The notes beneath the pieces are model-generated. The model did not search any database, had not been told where the DNA came from, and saw only the letters and a list, made by a program, of their open reading frames with translations. The position numbers and the translations under genes were made by a program. From a virus, in IMG/VR virus record IMGVR_UViG_3300040771_000127: DNA of 64,000 nt. One strand, given 5' to 3'. Position 1 is the first letter of the stretch; every line of letters begins with the position of its first letter. Shown here in pieces: positions 1,546 to 56,691 of the stretch.

Positions 1546-3291
1546 ATGTCTAATAAAATAGGTTTACAAGTAGAGGAGGGAGTAACTAAGGGATTTAGTT
1601 CTTTAGTAGAACCTTCTAAGCGTAACATAGGCGTACTTATGGCTAGGCTACGAGGTGTCGCTAATTTACCAGTACTTTTATCATCACTAGAAGAAGATAG
1701 AAGTGTTTTTGGTGGCTTTTTAGCGGGTGCTTACGGATATGCAGTCATTAAAAATATGTTCAGAAATTCCCGTGGTTATACACCTAGTATCTACGGTTTA
1801 AGAGTTGTAGGTGCAGGTTCTTCTGTTGCTCAAACTACCCTAGATGTATCAGGTCTGTTCTCTTTAGAGGGTACTGCTTCTTACATGGGTTCCGAAGATG
1901 TAGGTTCTTGGGGTAATGACTTAGCTGTAATTTTGTACCCTAAGGGTATTAAATCCGCAGGTAAGTGGTACTTTGAGGTTTTGTACAAAGGTAGAGTTGT
2001 AGAGAGCTACTCTTCTGCTCTTATTTCAGAAATAATTGCACAAACTCAGGAGTCTAAATTTGCGGTATTTACAAGTGCTACAGATTTTACTGTTGCTGAA
2101 AATTCAGAGTTGGCTAAAAGTTTTGACGGGTTAATTAGTGTAGGTTTATCAGGTCTACAGACAGCTAATGGTTTTCTGTTAACTACTATACCAGTAGACT
2201 TCGTAAATCCAGTAGGTTTTGTTCTTTTAGATTCTAAAGGAAGTAAGATCGGTACAGTGGCTACTTTTAACGTAGGTACTAAAGTTGGTACACTGGTGGA
2301 TGTTGCCCTAGTTAGTGGAAACTTAAATGGTGCTACTTTCTTAACGGATGAGGCTTACACAGCTAATTTTACTGGTGGGGTTTATGTTGCGCCCGTGGAA
2401 AGTGATTTCTATGGTAGAACAACTGAGACTGAAAAAATGGGTCTAGACCTATTTAAAACGGAAGATGTTCAGATTGTTATGAACACGGAATTCCACACAA
2501 ACTCTATGGCTATAGAAGGTAAAGCTTTTGCGGAAGATAGTGATGTTTTGTACGTAGCTAACTTACCGGAAAACGCTAATCTAGGCGTTGCTCAAGATTT
2601 CGCTAATTCTTTACAGACTGGTACAGTTTCACATATAGCTGTTTACCATGGTTGGGCCAAGACTATTGTTGACGATGTTAACTCAGGTTATGTTCCCGTT
2701 ATCGGTTGTGTTATTGGTGCTGGGTACGTTCGTGCTACAGGTATGCAAGGAGATTTTATTCATATACCACCAGCAGGGGTAGATTCTGCTTTTAGTGATA
2801 TTTCTGAGGTTAAAGGAGGTAAACTTTCTCAGGTAGAGATTGACCGTTACGTTCAAGACTTTACAGTTAACGTTGTTAAGTACCAGATCGGTTTGGGTTA
2901 CTTTTTGATTAGTTCTAGAACTATGTCAACAAATGCTCTTTACCACTCAATCCACATAAGACTACAGACTAGTTTCTACAAGAGAGTAATTAGTGAGAAC
3001 TTTAACTGGGTATTACAGAAACCTAATACTCCAGAGCTTAAGCGGTCTATCTACTCTTCTTTATTTACTTATTTTAGAAATGAGTACAATAACGGAGCTT
3101 TAGAAAATTCCGTTCCTTTTACTACGGCTTGTGTTATTATTGTAGATAAACGTAATAATCCAGTAGGTCAAGATAGAAAATTGCTTAACACTGATATTGA
3201 TTGGATCCCTACAGAAGCTACGGAGTCTGTTAGAATATCTATGAACAGAAATGATGGGCAATTATTGTTAAATGAAGTAACTACAAACTAA
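1546..3291 (+). CDS. Contractile tail sheath protein
   Basis: 581 aa, the first large ORF of the tail block. A tube-sized ORF follows 1 nt later, then a chaperone pair and the tape measure, which is the canonical myovirus order. Call is by size and synteny; no motif verified. Confidence 0.65.
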   Translation: MSNKIGLQVEEGVTKGFSSLVEPSKRNIGVLMARLRGVANLPVLLSSLEEDRSVFGGFLAGAYGYAVIKNMFRNSRGYTPSIYGLRVVGAGSSVAQTTLDVSGLFSLEGTASYMGSEDVGSWGNDLAVILYPKGIKSAGKWYFEVLYKGRVVESYSSALISEIIAQTQESKFAVFTSATDFTVAENSELAKSFDGLISVGLSGLQTANGFLLTTIPVDFVNPVGFVLLDSKGSKIGTVATFNVGTKVGTLVDVALVSGNLNGATFLTDEAYTANFTGGVYVAPVESDFYGRTTETEKMGLDLFKTEDVQIVMNTEFHTNSMAIEGKAFAEDSDVLYVANLPENANLGVAQDFANSLQTGTVSHIAVYHGWAKTIVDDVNSGYVPVIGCVIGAGYVRATGMQGDFIHIPPAGVDSAFSDISEVKGGKLSQVEIDRYVQDFTVNVVKYQIGLGYFLISSRTMSTNALYHSIHIRLQTSFYKRVISENFNWVLQKPNTPELKRSIYSSLFTYFRNEYNNGALENSVPFTTACVIIVDKRNNPVGQDRKLLNTDIDWIPTEATESVRISMNRNDGQLLLNEVTTN

Positions 3292-3292
3292 G

Positions 3293-3742
3293 ATGGCAAA
3301 ACCAACTAGAGTAAAAGATTTATATGTTCAGAATGGGTGGTACTTGGAATTTCCAGGTTTAATTTCACCCCATTTTGAGACATTGGAGGGGTTAGCTAGA
3401 ACCTCTAATAGTGTGGAAATAGTAGATGGGGGAACGAATAAGAAACACAAATTCGGTTCTCAAATTCTTGATTTTTCAGACATGACACTTACAAGAACTA
3501 TGCAAGGAACTGTTGAGGATAAGACGTTACACGCTATAGCTGACGATATGATTTTAAGAGGTCTACGTTTGCCAGTGATAGCTGTAAAGTTACATCACCA
3601 ACAAGAAGTTTTTAGAATTCTATTTGAAGAGTTTAAAATTAATAGTCAAAATTTACCTAACTTTGACGTTAACTCAGAAGATAAATTCACAATCAGTTAT
3701 TCAGCAAGTTGCTCTGATTGGGACATTCTTTGGGCAGTGTAA
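3293..3742 (+). CDS. Tail tube protein
   Basis: 149 aa immediately after the sheath-sized ORF. Call is by synteny. Confidence 0.6.
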   Translation: MAKPTRVKDLYVQNGWYLEFPGLISPHFETLEGLARTSNSVEIVDGGTNKKHKFGSQILDFSDMTLTRTMQGTVEDKTLHAIADDMILRGLRLPVIAVKLHHQQEVFRILFEEFKINSQNLPNFDVNSEDKFTISYSASCSDWDILWAV

Positions 3743-21593: not shown

Positions 21594-22028
21594 ATGGATG
21601 GAAAATTTAAAAAAGGTCACGTACCACATAACAAAGATAAAAAAATAGAGGACTATCTTTCTCCCGAAGCAATACTCAAGGTTAAAAGCAGTCAATTCGT
21701 TAAAGGAGAGTGTTCGGGGGAAAATAACCTTTCTTGGAAAGGTGGTGTACAAAAAATATCTAATGACTGTGTGCATATTTGGGTAGGTACAAATTCTCGT
21801 AAAAGAAGACCCGTACTTAATTATGAAGCAGTACACGGTAAAATACCTTATCGTTGGATTATATATCACCTAGACCAAGACAAAGATAATGACGAGGTAA
21901 GTAACCTTATCGCTATTCCTAGAGCCGTACTAATGGCTTTAAATAAAGGTCGCATAATCAATAGTCACGCAGAGATTACTGCAGCAGTACAAAACTACAT
22001 AAACAAAAACCAGACTTATGACAACTAA
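21594..22028 (+). CDS. HNH homing endonuclease
   Basis: 144 aa with the HNH pattern NYEAVHGKIPYRWIIYHLDQDKDNDEVSNLIAIPRAVLMALN. Confidence 0.65.
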   Translation: MDGKFKKGHVPHNKDKKIEDYLSPEAILKVKSSQFVKGECSGENNLSWKGGVQKISNDCVHIWVGTNSRKRRPVLNYEAVHGKIPYRWIIYHLDQDKDNDEVSNLIAIPRAVLMALNKGRIINSHAEITAAVQNYINKNQTYDN

Positions 22029-22426: not shown

Positions 22427-23062
22427 ATGAAAGAAAAAGAAAAACCTAGTCTAGTTAGTTTAGGCATACTACCAATTTGGCATGATAAAAGTTGGGACGA
22501 TTTCACCAATGACGAAAGAGCTAGAGAAGTAATTGTCACCTACAGTAAAAAGTTAGAGGCAGCGGAAAAAGATTGTGTAGGTTATTTTATTTACGGACTT
22601 CCAGGTGTGGGTAAATCTATGCTCGCTAACATTTTATTTAAAGATCTAGTTGACAAAAGTAAACGGGTAAAGGTTATCTCTCTTGGTGGGTTGGTAGACT
22701 TATTCACCGCTTCTTGGAGTGATAGTGACAAACGTGAAGATTTCCGCTATTTAGTACAAGTTGTAGATTACTTATGTATTGAAGATTTTGGTAAAGAGTT
22801 TTATCGAAAAGATGGGGATGGTAAAAGTTTCGCTACTACCATTCTTGAAGATGTATTGGTTAAACGTTTAGGTTTCCGAAAGATTACTTTTATCGTTAGT
22901 AGTATTGGTGCAGGTGAGGTAAGTAAAATTTACTCTAAAAACTTGGCTTCACTAGTACTAGAAACTTGTGTACCCTTACAAGTAGTAGGGAAAGATTTCC
23001 GTACAAAAATACAGGCACGCTTAAAAGGTAAGTGGCAACCGGATAAAGAAAAATTACAGTAG
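22427..23062 (+). CDS. DnaC/IstB-like AAA+ helicase loader
   Basis: Walker A GLPGVGKSMLAN and Walker B YLCIEDFG. 211 aa. Confidence 0.65.
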   Translation: MKEKEKPSLVSLGILPIWHDKSWDDFTNDERAREVIVTYSKKLEAAEKDCVGYFIYGLPGVGKSMLANILFKDLVDKSKRVKVISLGGLVDLFTASWSDSDKREDFRYLVQVVDYLCIEDFGKEFYRKDGDGKSFATTILEDVLVKRLGFRKITFIVSSIGAGEVSKIYSKNLASLVLETCVPLQVVGKDFRTKIQARLKGKWQPDKEKLQ

Positions 23063-23445: not shown

Positions 23446-23483
23446 GTTGTAGCTAAATTTAGTTTTCTGTATTATTACAGTAT

Positions 23484-23568
23484 TAAAGTAAACAGTTTGA
23501 AGCCTGCTAATCAGAAAGGAAGGGACAGGCAAAACGTCAAAACTCCGACCCGTTAACTGTTTACTTTA
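23484..23568 (+). repeat. Long-range inverted repeat (14-bp stem closing a 57-nt loop)
   Basis: TAAAGTAAACAGTT (23484-23497) is the exact reverse complement of AACTGTTTACTTTA (23555-23568). The element is intergenic and sits directly upstream of the tRNA-like element. Confidence 0.6.
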
Positions 23569-23572
23569 TTTT

Positions 23573-23670
23573 GGGGAGGCAAGTCCACTTGGAAGGGCAA
23601 CATACAGTGTCGGGGCATAAAGATATAAGCTAATATCTCCCCAAGGTGGGTTCGATTCCCACCCTCTCCA
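23573..23670 (+). ncRNA. Atypical tRNA-like element (canonical acceptor, D and T arms; no canonical anticodon arm)
   Basis: The 5' strand GGGGAGG pairs with the 3' strand CCTCTCC, including a G3-U70 wobble, with A at the discriminator position. T arm is GTGGG-TTCGATT-CCCAC. D-like arm is GTCC-ACTTGGAA-GGGC. The middle folds as an extended hairpin GGGG-CATAA-AGATAT-AAGCTA-ATATCT-CCCC instead of a 5-bp/7-nt anticodon arm. Total length is 98 nt. Confidence 0.45.
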
Positions 23671-23684
23671 CAAAAAACCATGAC

Positions 23685-24041
23685 ATGAAAGAAAAAGTAA
23701 AAAAAGCTGAATTATTAAGTATAGTTCCTAAGGAAGTAGATGGTAAGGTAAAAATAGAGGTTATATTTAGTGATATAGCTAAGTGGTTACCTAAGGAGTT
23801 ACTTAAAATAGAAATTACTCTTGAGCAGTGGCTACAGTTTCTAGAGGACTGCTTTAAACAATTAAAAGATCCAGATCACGTAGTAGTTCCCTTTGATATT
23901 ACCTTAGATTTCCAAAAGTCTCAGGTAAAAGTAATAGGTTTAGGAGAGTATGCATTTTCTTTCCCCAAAAGTAATTGGAAAAGATTTATTGAGGGAGAAG
24001 CGGAAAAGTTACTACTCACAGGAGTTATACAATTAGAATAA
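23685..24041 (+). CDS. Hypothetical protein
   Basis: The track ORF 23646-24041 begins with GTG inside the tRNA-like T arm. The first ATG (MKEKVKK...) is at 23685, giving 118 aa. Confidence 0.55.
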   Translation: MKEKVKKAELLSIVPKEVDGKVKIEVIFSDIAKWLPKELLKIEITLEQWLQFLEDCFKQLKDPDHVVVPFDITLDFQKSQVKVIGLGEYAFSFPKSNWKRFIEGEAEKLLLTGVIQLE

Positions 24042-24606: not shown

Positions 24607-25242
24607 ATGCAAGAAAAAAATAATTTAGGAGGTATCACTATTAGTACAGATGCAAGTTTTTGTCCCCGTACTAAAGTTGGAGGTTGGGCTTCTTATGTAG
24701 TTTGCAATCACTTTAAATTTAAGATTAGTGGTAAACTAAAAGGCTTTTTACTTTCACCACAAGAAGCTGAAATTAAAGCCATAGGTAACGTATTACATTA
24801 CATACTTAGTAGTCCACATATTCCAGAATTTAGTTACATATATGTTAATACTGATTGTAAGAACGGAGCTAAAGCTATAGAAAACCCTAGTACACCTTTA
24901 GAATGGGCAGTAAATAAAAGTCTGCAACTTTTGGCTACTAGGACTAATTGCCCTAAAGTAGAATTTAGGTATGTTGCAGCGCACACAAGTTCTACTACGC
25001 CAAGAAGCTACGTTAATGAATGGTGCGACAAACAGGCAAAAAAACACATGGCCGTAAGGCGTAAAGAAGTAAAAGATCAGGAATCAGCTAAACCTAAACC
25101 TTGTACTGTTTGTCCGTGGATCCAAAAAGGACAACCGGATATAACAGAAGAGCTTAAGTCACTTGCCAAATCAGGTGAATGGTTTTGTTGTCACAAAAAT
25201 TTAGGCACTTGTATAGGTGCAGCTAACTATAAAAGTAAATAG
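24607..25242 (+). CDS. RNase H (type 1) with Cys-rich C-terminal extension
   Basis: DEDD(H)-like order: ISTDASF, QEAEIKAI, VNTDCKN, AAHT, NEWCDKQAK. The C-terminal tail is CTVCPW...WFCCHKNLGTC. Confidence 0.65.
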   Translation: MQEKNNLGGITISTDASFCPRTKVGGWASYVVCNHFKFKISGKLKGFLLSPQEAEIKAIGNVLHYILSSPHIPEFSYIYVNTDCKNGAKAIENPSTPLEWAVNKSLQLLATRTNCPKVEFRYVAAHTSSTTPRSYVNEWCDKQAKKHMAVRRKEVKDQESAKPKPCTVCPWIQKGQPDITEELKSLAKSGEWFCCHKNLGTCIGAANYKSK

Positions 25243-56298: not shown

Positions 56299-56691
56299 AT
56301 GAAAGCGATAAAACACATAGTAGCCATTAAATTGGTTGAGCAAGTATTGGACTTAGTTCCAGTAATAAATTCGGGAACTTATAATATGGTTGACCCTACT
56401 CACTACGAGAATGGGTTTTCCGATTTGGGTTGGTGTACTGTTGGGTATAATGATGTGACTTGGGGAGTGACTTTGACTATAAAAGATAAAGAAGCTGGAA
56501 GTCGTGGTCGTAGCATTTACTTCGATGGTGAGGATTTAACTCCACAGGATAATTGGGTTAAGGGTTCTTTTTTAATGTTACGTGAGATATTGAAAGATAT
56601 GCGTAAAGCGGGTATGCGTTCTAAACGTGAGGCGTACTTTGAGGAACGTAGTATGGTTGACCCAATGGGATGTTTAGAGGATTATATTTAA
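56299..56691 (+). CDS. Hypothetical protein
   Basis: 130 aa ORF. Confidence 0.55.
   Translation: MKAIKHIVAIKLVEQVLDLVPVINSGTYNMVDPTHYENGFSDLGWCTVGYNDVTWGVTLTIKDKEAGSRGRSIYFDGEDLTPQDNWVKGSFLMLREILKDMRKAGMRSKREAYFEERSMVDPMGCLEDYI

Follow-up and report, generated by a model that had tools for sequence, protein, structure and literature searches.

A tRNA-shaped element without a readable anticodon in the replication module of a contractile-tailed phage

Introduction

A transfer RNA (tRNA) shape can be put to use without decoding. In mascRNA of MALAT1, in the C4 RNA precursors of P1 and P7 and in the CI RNA precursor of P4, a module folded like a tRNA serves to guide RNase P or RNase Z to a cut in a longer transcript, and it reads no codon. 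The subject of this analysis is a 98-nucleotide (nt) element of tRNA shape, and with no readable anticodon, at positions 23573–23670 (+ strand) of the IMG/VR virus record IMGVR_UViG_3300040771_000127. The stretch that was analysed, here called the window, is 64,000 nt long; it covers the initial 64 kb of a phage genome that is complete at 81,286 bp and bounded by direct terminal repeats (DTR). An earlier note on this DNA, made by a reader who had seen only the letters and their open reading frames (ORFs), had described the element as an atypical tRNA-like structure with alanine-type identity features. The precursors named above have no sequence relation to the element and parallel only the role in cis that is proposed for it below.

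Another group of comparators is found among the transfer-messenger RNAs (tmRNAs), in which the tRNA-like domain (TLD) has by consensus no D stem, a UUCGAC-type motif following the acceptor and the sequence GGAC ahead of the T stem. Mycobacteriophage DS6A encodes a TLD-only tmRNA gene, and tmRNA is inhibited by a similar molecule that consists of the TLD only, in chargeable and non-chargeable form alike (PMC4131195). There are also tmRNAs with no coding sequence (CDS-less) and tmRNAs with a tag of two amino acids (aa), Ala-Ala (PMC11915505). The TLD-only and CDS-less molecules of DS6A, jakobid mitochondria and Mallomonadaceae plastids resemble the element in that they are small RNAs with an acceptor and T arm of alanine type, lack an anticodon and have little or nothing of a tag frame, and one of them is phage-encoded (PMC4131195, PMC11915505). 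They are, however, recognisable derivatives of tmRNA, whereas the element possesses a D stem and is without the motifs specific to the tmRNA TLD.

Architecture of the element

The top half of a tRNA is intact in the element, the anticodon is unreadable, and the whole is not a product of chance. Four tRNA-like parts are present in the sequence and in register. The acceptor strands (23573–23579 and 23663–23669) pair at seven of seven positions, the third pair being G·U, and as in a canonical tRNA this 7-bp helix stacks directly on a 5-bp T stem with a TTCRANY-type loop, while the D arm supplies the GG to form an elbow. Pattern scans returned the T arm as the sole match to GGTTCGAWTCC in the window and GGGGAGG as the sole GGRGRGG within reach of the 3' acceptor strand. 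The D arm is only partly canonical: the 4-bp stem and the GG are as expected, but the connector has three nucleotides instead of two and position 8 is C instead of U. None of the 16 scaffold pairs is broken, the T loop and the GG of the D loop are likewise intact, and only the anticodon region is non-canonical, which is consistent with selection acting on the top half.

In place of the anticodon arm there is a 13-nt spacer and a hairpin with a 4-bp outer stem, a 5-nt bulge and a 6-bp inner stem, which accounts for the lack of an ARAGORN or Rfam call. Both the minimum free energy (MFE) and the centroid folds reproduce the hairpin (–35.9 kcal/mol, z = –2.7); its exact core, AAGATATAAGCTAATATC at 23620–23637, is unique within the window, and the element as a whole is single-copy in its genome. 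Neither the folds nor ARAGORN nor placement by hand yielded a regular anticodon arm in register, with a stem of 5 bp and a loop of 7 nt bearing U33 and a purine at 37. CCA is not encoded, and the discriminator is followed by the trailer CAAAAAACC and then by an ATG at 23685. The parts listed in the earlier note, namely the acceptor stem with a G-U third pair and discriminator A, the textbook T arm, the D-like arm with GG and the interrupted central hairpin with its 6-nt loop, were thereby confirmed, and the statement that the element cannot decode normally is supported, ARAGORN being silent with and without introns.

The weight that such a shape deserves depends on how it is defined. A loose definition (any 5-bp stem with a TTCRA loop and an adjacent 7-bp acceptor) was matched about 0.25 times per shuffled window and is weak by itself. 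Adding the G53/C61 closing pair reduced the matches to 0.04 per shuffled window, and adding a D arm with GG left none in 400 shuffled windows, while the real window passed at 23573–23670 only. Another loose match in the window, at 56425–56540, failed the G53/C61 and D-arm criteria and was treated as chance.

Annotation tools return little at this position. Whether or not introns were allowed, ARAGORN reported no tRNA or tmRNA in the window or anywhere else in the 81,286-bp genome, and only at very low thresholds did it draw a cloverleaf, flagged as a ‘possible pseudogene’; in tmRNA mode (-m) it gave no tmRNA at the element, low threshold included. Rfam yielded no match at the gathering scores (29 bits for tRNA, RF00005; 47 bits for tmRNA, RF00023). 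The best sub-threshold clan match was tmRNA at 13.5 bits (E 0.0014), with tRNA lower, and that match derives almost wholly from the T arm and the 3' acceptor strand. A blastn search with the 3' part matched the 3' ends of tmRNAs of crAss-like phages, and the last 30 nt resemble the 3' ends of many tRNA-Ala and tmRNA genes.

A homologue in a jumbo-phage tRNA array

IMG/VR was scanned for the 3'-end motif of the element, and a covariance model built from the element (R1) was searched over the fetched loci. The scan recovered ordinary 74-nt tRNA-Ala genes together with about 30 non-canonical elements of 58–132 nt, in which an alanine-type acceptor stem and T arm enclose unrelated middles. The sole element sharing the hairpin core of the window lies at positions 3422–3515 of locus L059 and is identical in L097, both IMG/VR contigs of an uncultured jumbo phage; it scored 40 bits (E ~5e-9) with the single-sequence model. 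Its core reads AAAGATATAA-GC/CT-TAATATC, and from the core through the T arm the two copies are about 85% identical. To judge from this sequence agreement, the element and a tRNA-like gene with an insert in another phage are homologues.

The L059 copy belongs to an array of tRNA genes (Phe, Glu, Glu, Ala, Phe...) carried by a jumbo-phage fragment. When introns are allowed, ARAGORN reads it as tRNA-Asn(GTT) interrupted precisely at 37/38 by an insert of 21 nt. This insert is the conserved hairpin of the window: it has equal length, lies at an equal distance from the T arm, is identical at 16 of 21 positions and has the same stem (GATAT/ATATC) and loop (AAsyTA), within the same order of parts. 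Of the cells in the alignment of the two copies, 98% pair. Seven pairs are changed on both sides (acceptor pair 7, two in the D stem, one in the outer stem and three in the T stem) and the inner hairpin is invariant; the D stem is kept although two of its pairs are changed on both sides and two on one side. The L059 gene differs from the window copy in having a 5-bp anticodon stem, a U33-GUU-A37 loop in register and a canonical D arm and connector, whereas the window copy has 13 nt of extra spacer and G3·U70 and stands alone in a phage without tRNA genes. The cmsearch alignment places GUGUC of the spacer opposite the GUGUU anticodon-loop segment of the homologue. In the window copy, GGGG abuts the 21-nt segment and GUGUC is displaced to the 5' side of that stem, so that no anticodon loop is in register. 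The earlier note had allowed that a search tool might find a standard cloverleaf with an intron; ARAGORN drew one for the homologue (tRNA-Asn(GTT), 21-nt insert) and none for the window copy.

Further copies were not recovered. A pattern of acceptor and T arm separated by a 50–80-nt gap had 0 matches in viral contigs, a pattern of hairpin and T loop found L059 and L097 only among viral contigs, and blastn of the element and of the middle of the homologue against 50,697 phage records gave generic T-arm matches only. The hairpin and T loop pattern also matched metagenome contigs (10) and genome contigs (3), all of them random, non-tRNA-like sequence.

A second insert-bearing tRNA is present in the L059 array (3024–3148), with a class-II-like D arm, a 5-bp anticodon stem and a loop region of about 60 nt. 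It scores 47.5 bits as an Rfam tRNA, ARAGORN -i calls a 53-nt insert, and inspection shows a Tyr-like loop, AUGUAAA, ahead of the insert. The presence of short inserts in phage anticodon loops may be a phenomenon in itself.

Alanine identity mark

The element carries G1-C72, G2-C71, G3·U70, G4-C69 and A73, the full set read by alanyl-tRNA synthetase (AlaRS) of the E. coli type. This enzyme is said, in work attributed to Hou and Schimmel in 1988 and to Francklyn and Schimmel in 1989, to charge acceptor helices with G3·U70, minihelices included, independently of the anticodon. Going by these positions, AlaRS could charge the RNA with alanine if the RNA is made. In addition to the identity set, the T arm (GTGGG-TTCGATT-CCCAC) and the D loop with GG are features of canonical tRNA-Ala (RF00005), from which the element departs in having no anticodon arm or UGC/GGC anticodon, in C8 and the 3-nt connector, and in its length of 98 nt. 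With the 74-nt tRNA-Ala genes of phages it has the 3' context ...TCTCCA-CAAAA in common, CCA again not being encoded, and this common context makes the same maturation route plausible for the element.

That alanine charging is itself a target of selection is doubtful. The mark could be incidental, since a single transition separates G3·U70 from A3-U70, no discriminator is commoner than A73, and the mark itself is not conserved; an ‘alanine set’ is expected by chance in about 1 in 10–20 such elements. The alanine assignment of the earlier note therefore stands as a description of the sequence, where the full set is present, and loses ground as a statement about function, the homologue having A3-U70 and only 6 of 73 look-alikes among the matches listed having G·U at 3-70.

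Anticodon-less look-alikes in other phages

A scan that was neutral with respect to identity, asking for a canonical D arm and then a T arm within 20 nt, returned at least 120 IMG/VR loci. Among the matches listed, perfect 7-bp acceptor stems occur in 73 of 122 elements, as against an expected 0.1%, and 48 of these 73 are in loci without any other tRNA; the acceptor sequences are diverse. The number of look-alikes with perfect stems indicates a recurring kind of element and not a one-off. A generic scanner, run over 2.2 Mb of fetched phage DNA, found 63 further tRNA-shaped elements uncalled by ARAGORN; nine are alanine-type. Look-alikes of tRNA that have no anticodon are common in phages, and most of them are not of alanine type. 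A full-text literature search found no description of an anticodon-less phage look-alike class, and the element is a real non-decoding tRNA mimic of a kind that recurs in phages and is essentially unstudied.

Dozens of the loci (L159–L278) contain ‘mini tRNAs’ of 55–68 nt, made up of an acceptor stem, a canonical D arm, a linker of 3–20 nt and a T arm. Their 7-bp stems are perfect and highly diverse, many do not start with G, and most are solitary in their locus.

Two cultured phages carry look-alikes and would make tractable test systems. Polaribacter phage Danklef_1 has a 58-nt ‘tRNA-OTHER’ with G3·U70/A73 (L028:368–425), in which only 3 nt are left of the anticodon arm. In Chryseobacterium phage MA9V-3, a look-alike of 89 nt that bears no annotation has G3·U70/A73 and a 23-nt anticodon-loop region (L029:337–425), and an annotated tRNA-Gln of 98 nt has a long extra arm and G3·U70/A73 (L029:608–704). 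The Danklef_1 element and the 89-nt one of MA9V-3, which belong with the look-alikes annotated ‘tRNA-OTHER/Undet’ in Bacteroidota phages, resemble the window element in their G3·U70/A73 acceptor, canonical T arm and CAAAA trailer, and in having a hairpin and an A/U tract directly upstream and a gene start a few nucleotides downstream. They differ from it in their unrelated middles and canonical D arms, and only generic tRNA parts are in common. At L059, too, a hairpin-plus-A/U tract immediately precedes the look-alike, as it does in Danklef_1 and MA9V-3.

In phage annotation a tRNA is entered only if software can identify its anticodon; the window element and several hundred look-alikes obtained from these scans show that non-decoding tRNA-shaped genes are numerous in phages as well. 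Should their RNAs be processed and, where G3·U70 is present, charged, they would form a largely unstudied layer of phage-host interaction at tRNA maturation, aminoacylation and ribosome rescue. The window element shows that a look-alike can stand alone in a phage without tRNA genes, and its possible descent from an insert-bearing tRNA of a jumbo-phage array suggests how such mimics arise. As a single copy with one homologue, judged by sequence comparison, it carries modest weight; it cannot settle what such RNAs do, but the class deserves attention.

Origin and possible roles

The explanation that we tend to favour is that the element is a genuine tRNA-shaped, non-decoding RNA gene, derived from an insert-bearing phage tRNA and processed by host enzymes; that it yields a real, processed tRNA-like RNA is likely. 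An otherwise tRNA-less lytic phage would have acquired an insert-bearing tRNA gene from another phage, and the acquired copy would have lost a readable anticodon loop or never had one. The element would be co-transcribed with the + strand replication genes. RNase P would be expected to cut at G1, right after an upstream protective hairpin, and the 3' tRNA-processing nuclease after A73, where the host CCA enzyme would then add CCA.

Cuts at these two places would split the upstream message from the downstream gene, and a ‘punctuation’ role in cis, by which neighbouring messages are separated and defined, is the likeliest of the roles considered, albeit a tentative assignment. It is suggested by placement: a structure with a 14-bp stem and a U tract precedes G1, and the ATG of the next gene stands 14 nt after A73. 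The released RNA of about 100 nt, having the AlaRS identity set, would very probably be charged with alanine and bind EF-Tu, but would read no codon. A role in trans as a mimic or decoy of tRNA or of the tmRNA TLD has no specific support and is possible but less probable than one in cis. Searches found no SmpB, Ro60/TROVE, RtcB or CCA-adding enzyme encoded in the phage genome, and a duplex search of the central hairpin against the flanks and the whole genome found no convincing antisense partner. Rather improbable is the bolder version of a trans role, in which a selected, alanine-charged mimic titrates SmpB, EF-Tu or AlaRS or acts as a decoy for host tRNA-directed defence, and the 21-nt hairpin is a portable module that phages insert at tRNA position 37/38. 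If it were true, this module would be the bacterial-virus counterpart of tRNA introns or of tRNA-scaffolded payload RNAs.

Several observations weigh against the favoured explanation. The tRNA core is imperfect (C8, a 3-nt connector and a 13-nt spacer), so that an L-shape is not assured. The covariation comes from two sequences only, and any two tRNAs show compensatory differences; the third acceptor pair of the homologue is A3-U70 and not G·U. A search of sequencing runs found no RNA run containing the phage sequence. A scan for promoter and terminator consensus sequences found no recognisable promoter between the upstream hairpin and G1, and transcription must therefore arrive by read-through from upstream. 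The arrangement of hairpin, tRNA-like element and ORF start is only modestly enriched, with 21–24% of non-canonical elements lying within 30 nt of an ORF start as compared with 12% of canonical tRNAs, the latter often being in arrays. Lastly, none of the 32 relatives of the phage that were sampled has the element, which indicates that it is dispensable for the group and possibly a recently captured relic. Model R1 found nothing in 26 distant relatives (~40% DnaB identity); the DnaB protein alignment led to 24 distant loci, likewise devoid of the element. In closer relatives, which were reached through the loader protein (nine homologues, 55–75% identical, and seven contigs), it found neither the element nor a comparable non-coding gap, and the interval from loader to RNase H is packed with small ORFs. 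IMG/VR searches with single proteins (the loader, the 118-aa protein and DnaB) returned no close relatives.

Alternative explanations

The main rival, to which we give a minor though appreciable share of the probability, is that the element is a relic. A captured insert-bearing tRNA(GUN) from a phage with a tRNA array would have had its anticodon stem-loop destroyed by a single rearrangement or indel, the rest would not yet have decayed, and G3·U70 would be a neutral A-to-G change. The relatives without the element speak for this, as do the homologue that is still readable as tRNA-Asn with A3-U70, the core deviations (C8 and the extra connector nucleotide) and the pseudogene flag raised by ARAGORN at very low thresholds; GUGUC, furthermore, lies outside the stem in the window copy as though the 5' strand and loop had been rearranged. 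A decaying copy would, however, not be expected to retain 16 scaffold pairs and both conserved loops despite seven double-changed pairs between the copies, and the hairpin that replaces the anticodon arm is itself well formed in the fold. About 100 nt of dead sequence is also rarely kept in compact lytic phage genomes. The suggestion of a degenerate tRNA in the earlier note thus stays a live option, the homologue being readable as an intron-bearing tRNA-Asn and the window copy not.

Considerably weaker is the case for a TLD-only or mini-tmRNA, an RNA that is charged or simply binds SmpB and either blocks trans-translation in the host by titrating SmpB, as reported for a DS6A-like TLD molecule, or adds a minimal Ala-Ala tag by way of GCA-UAA (23615–23620) in the single-stranded bulge. 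The G3·U70/A73 set and the T arm are common to tmRNA, the sub-threshold Rfam match and the blastn matches to crAss-like phage tmRNAs lie in this direction, and both the TLD-only gene of DS6A and CDS-less or 2-aa-tag tmRNAs are on record (PMC4131195, PMC11915505). Yet 13.5 bits is far under the gathering score of 47, and inspection reveals a true 4-bp D stem, AAG in place of GGAC before the T stem and no ...UUCGAC... after the acceptor. It is also hard to see how a ‘resume codon’ situated 4 bp away from the tRNA core would get to the decoding centre. The possible tag frames, GCA-UAA and ...AAA GAU AUA AGC UAA, were noticed post hoc, and all three frames quickly hit stops in this AT-rich stretch.

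A candidate mini-tmRNA was encountered in another phage contig, where an RNA of about 120 nt (L130:2911–3031) adjoins a tRNA-Ala gene and has a tmRNA-like 5' end, GGGGATGAATAGGGTGTCGAC, with GGAC ahead of its T stem. One run gave it 53.3 bits as an Rfam tmRNA (threshold 47), and on a shorter slice it was unreported; for the tmRNA explanation of the window element it counts as a lead only.

A functional decoding tRNA, from which the insert is removed or in which it is tolerated, is very improbable. The call of the homologue as tRNA-Asn(GTT) with its insert at the canonical 37/38, the neighbour with a 53-nt insert and several other insert-bearing phage elements above the Rfam tRNA threshold would be in keeping with it. 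At default thresholds, however, ARAGORN -i is silent on the window and no 5-bp stem with a U33 loop could be placed by hand; RtcB is absent from the genome, and we know of no splicing system for tRNA inserts of 20–50 nt in bacteria or phages. The ‘introns’ of ARAGORN -i are moreover inconsistent within homologous pairs (L064 and L134 are called Val and Tyr) and hence error-prone.

Least probable of all is a feature at the level of DNA, whose tRNA shape would be incidental and which would be part of a replication origin or else an attP core copied from the 3' end of a tRNA or tmRNA of the host: the element does sit in a replication module beside a long inverted repeat and its last 30 nt are like tRNA-Ala and tmRNA 3' ends, but both tRNA halves are perfectly paired, unlike att cores, which hold the 3' part only, the architecture is not expected by chance (0 of 400 shuffles), and the DTR-bounded complete genome has no match to tyrosine integrase (PF00589) or serine recombinase (PF00239), which makes an att core very unlikely. 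The fragment of a host tRNA gene, or att core, considered in the earlier note is on these grounds set aside, and nothing in the analysis supports the primer that it also mentioned. A mimic of YrlA or Y RNA was rejected, there being no TROVE or RtcB in the genome and no Rfam YrlA match, and the hairpin being closed and the acceptor stem open.

Genomic context

The phage is a lytic-type myophage from a cold environment (ice). Its genome has a G+C content of about 35%, with nearly all genes on the + strand, and encodes the tail sheath, tape measure and baseplate wedge of a contractile-tailed phage. The closest cultured relative is Bacteroides phage BS162P1, with a DnaB identity of 37%. Among sequencing runs, phage DNA was found in one only, an ice metagenome that is the probable source sample.

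The element occupies a 239-nt non-coding gap (23446–23684) on the coding strand, between genes for proteins of 126 and 118 aa (Table 1), and this gap is one of few long non-coding stretches in a tightly packed genome. The surrounding replication module further holds a C5 methylase, a DnaB-like helicase and a family-A polymerase. The 118-aa protein has no Pfam or PHROG match and a weak Atlas hint of a PUR/Whirly-like single-strand-binding fold (TM ~0.5).

Table 1. Positions in the window of the parts of the tRNA-shaped element and of neighbouring features
Feature	Position	Strand	Description
DnaC-like loader	22427–23062		replication module
Upstream gene, 126 aa	23065–23445		no Pfam or PHROG family; Atlas fold hint ABA-sandwich-like (phage protein), TM 0.62–0.72
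Upstream structured segment	23484–23568	+	from the fold of 23446–23572, –30.2 kcal/mol
Acceptor stem, 5' strand	23573–23579	+	GGGGAGG; G3 of G3·U70 at 23575; sequence
Connector	23580–23582	+	CAA; 3 nt between acceptor and D stem
D arm	23583–23598	+	4-bp stem GTCC/GGGC, 8-nt loop ACTTGGAA with GG; sequence
Spacer	23599–23611	+	13 nt, AACATACAGTGTC; between D arm and hairpin; weak hairpin (4 bp, 3-nt loop) in MFE fold
Extended hairpin replacing anticodon arm	23612–23642	+	outer stem GGGG/CCCC, 5-nt 5' bulge CATAA, inner stem AGATAT/ATATCT, 6-nt loop AAGCTA; folds
Segment homologous to L059 insert	23616–23636	+	21 nt, 16/21 identical
T arm	23646–23662	+	stem GTGGG/CCCAC, loop TTCGATT; sequence
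Acceptor stem, 3' strand, and discriminator	23663–23670	+	CCTCTCC and A73; U70 at 23667, A73 at 23670; sequence
Downstream gene, 118 aa	23685–24041	+	ATG 14 nt past the discriminator, after an A-rich leader; ORF list
RNase H	24607–25242		replication module

Between the upstream gene and the element lies a structured segment in which a perfect 14-bp long-range stem, TAAAGTAAACAGTT / AACTGTTTACTTTA, surrounds 57 nt with an inner GCCTG/CAGGC hairpin. A U-rich tract follows and runs up to the tRNA-like element, the structure with this tract ending 4 nt before G1. The structure matches no Rfam family and is probably a terminator or 3'-end protector of the upstream transcript, although it may instead be a separate small RNA. 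Weak matches to the Bacteroidota –7 box were seen by eye only and were not used.

The replication module also contains an HNH endonuclease gene at 21594–22028 (PHROG 1891, E 2e-19), about 1.5 kb upstream of the element, which may mark this region as prone to gene insertion.

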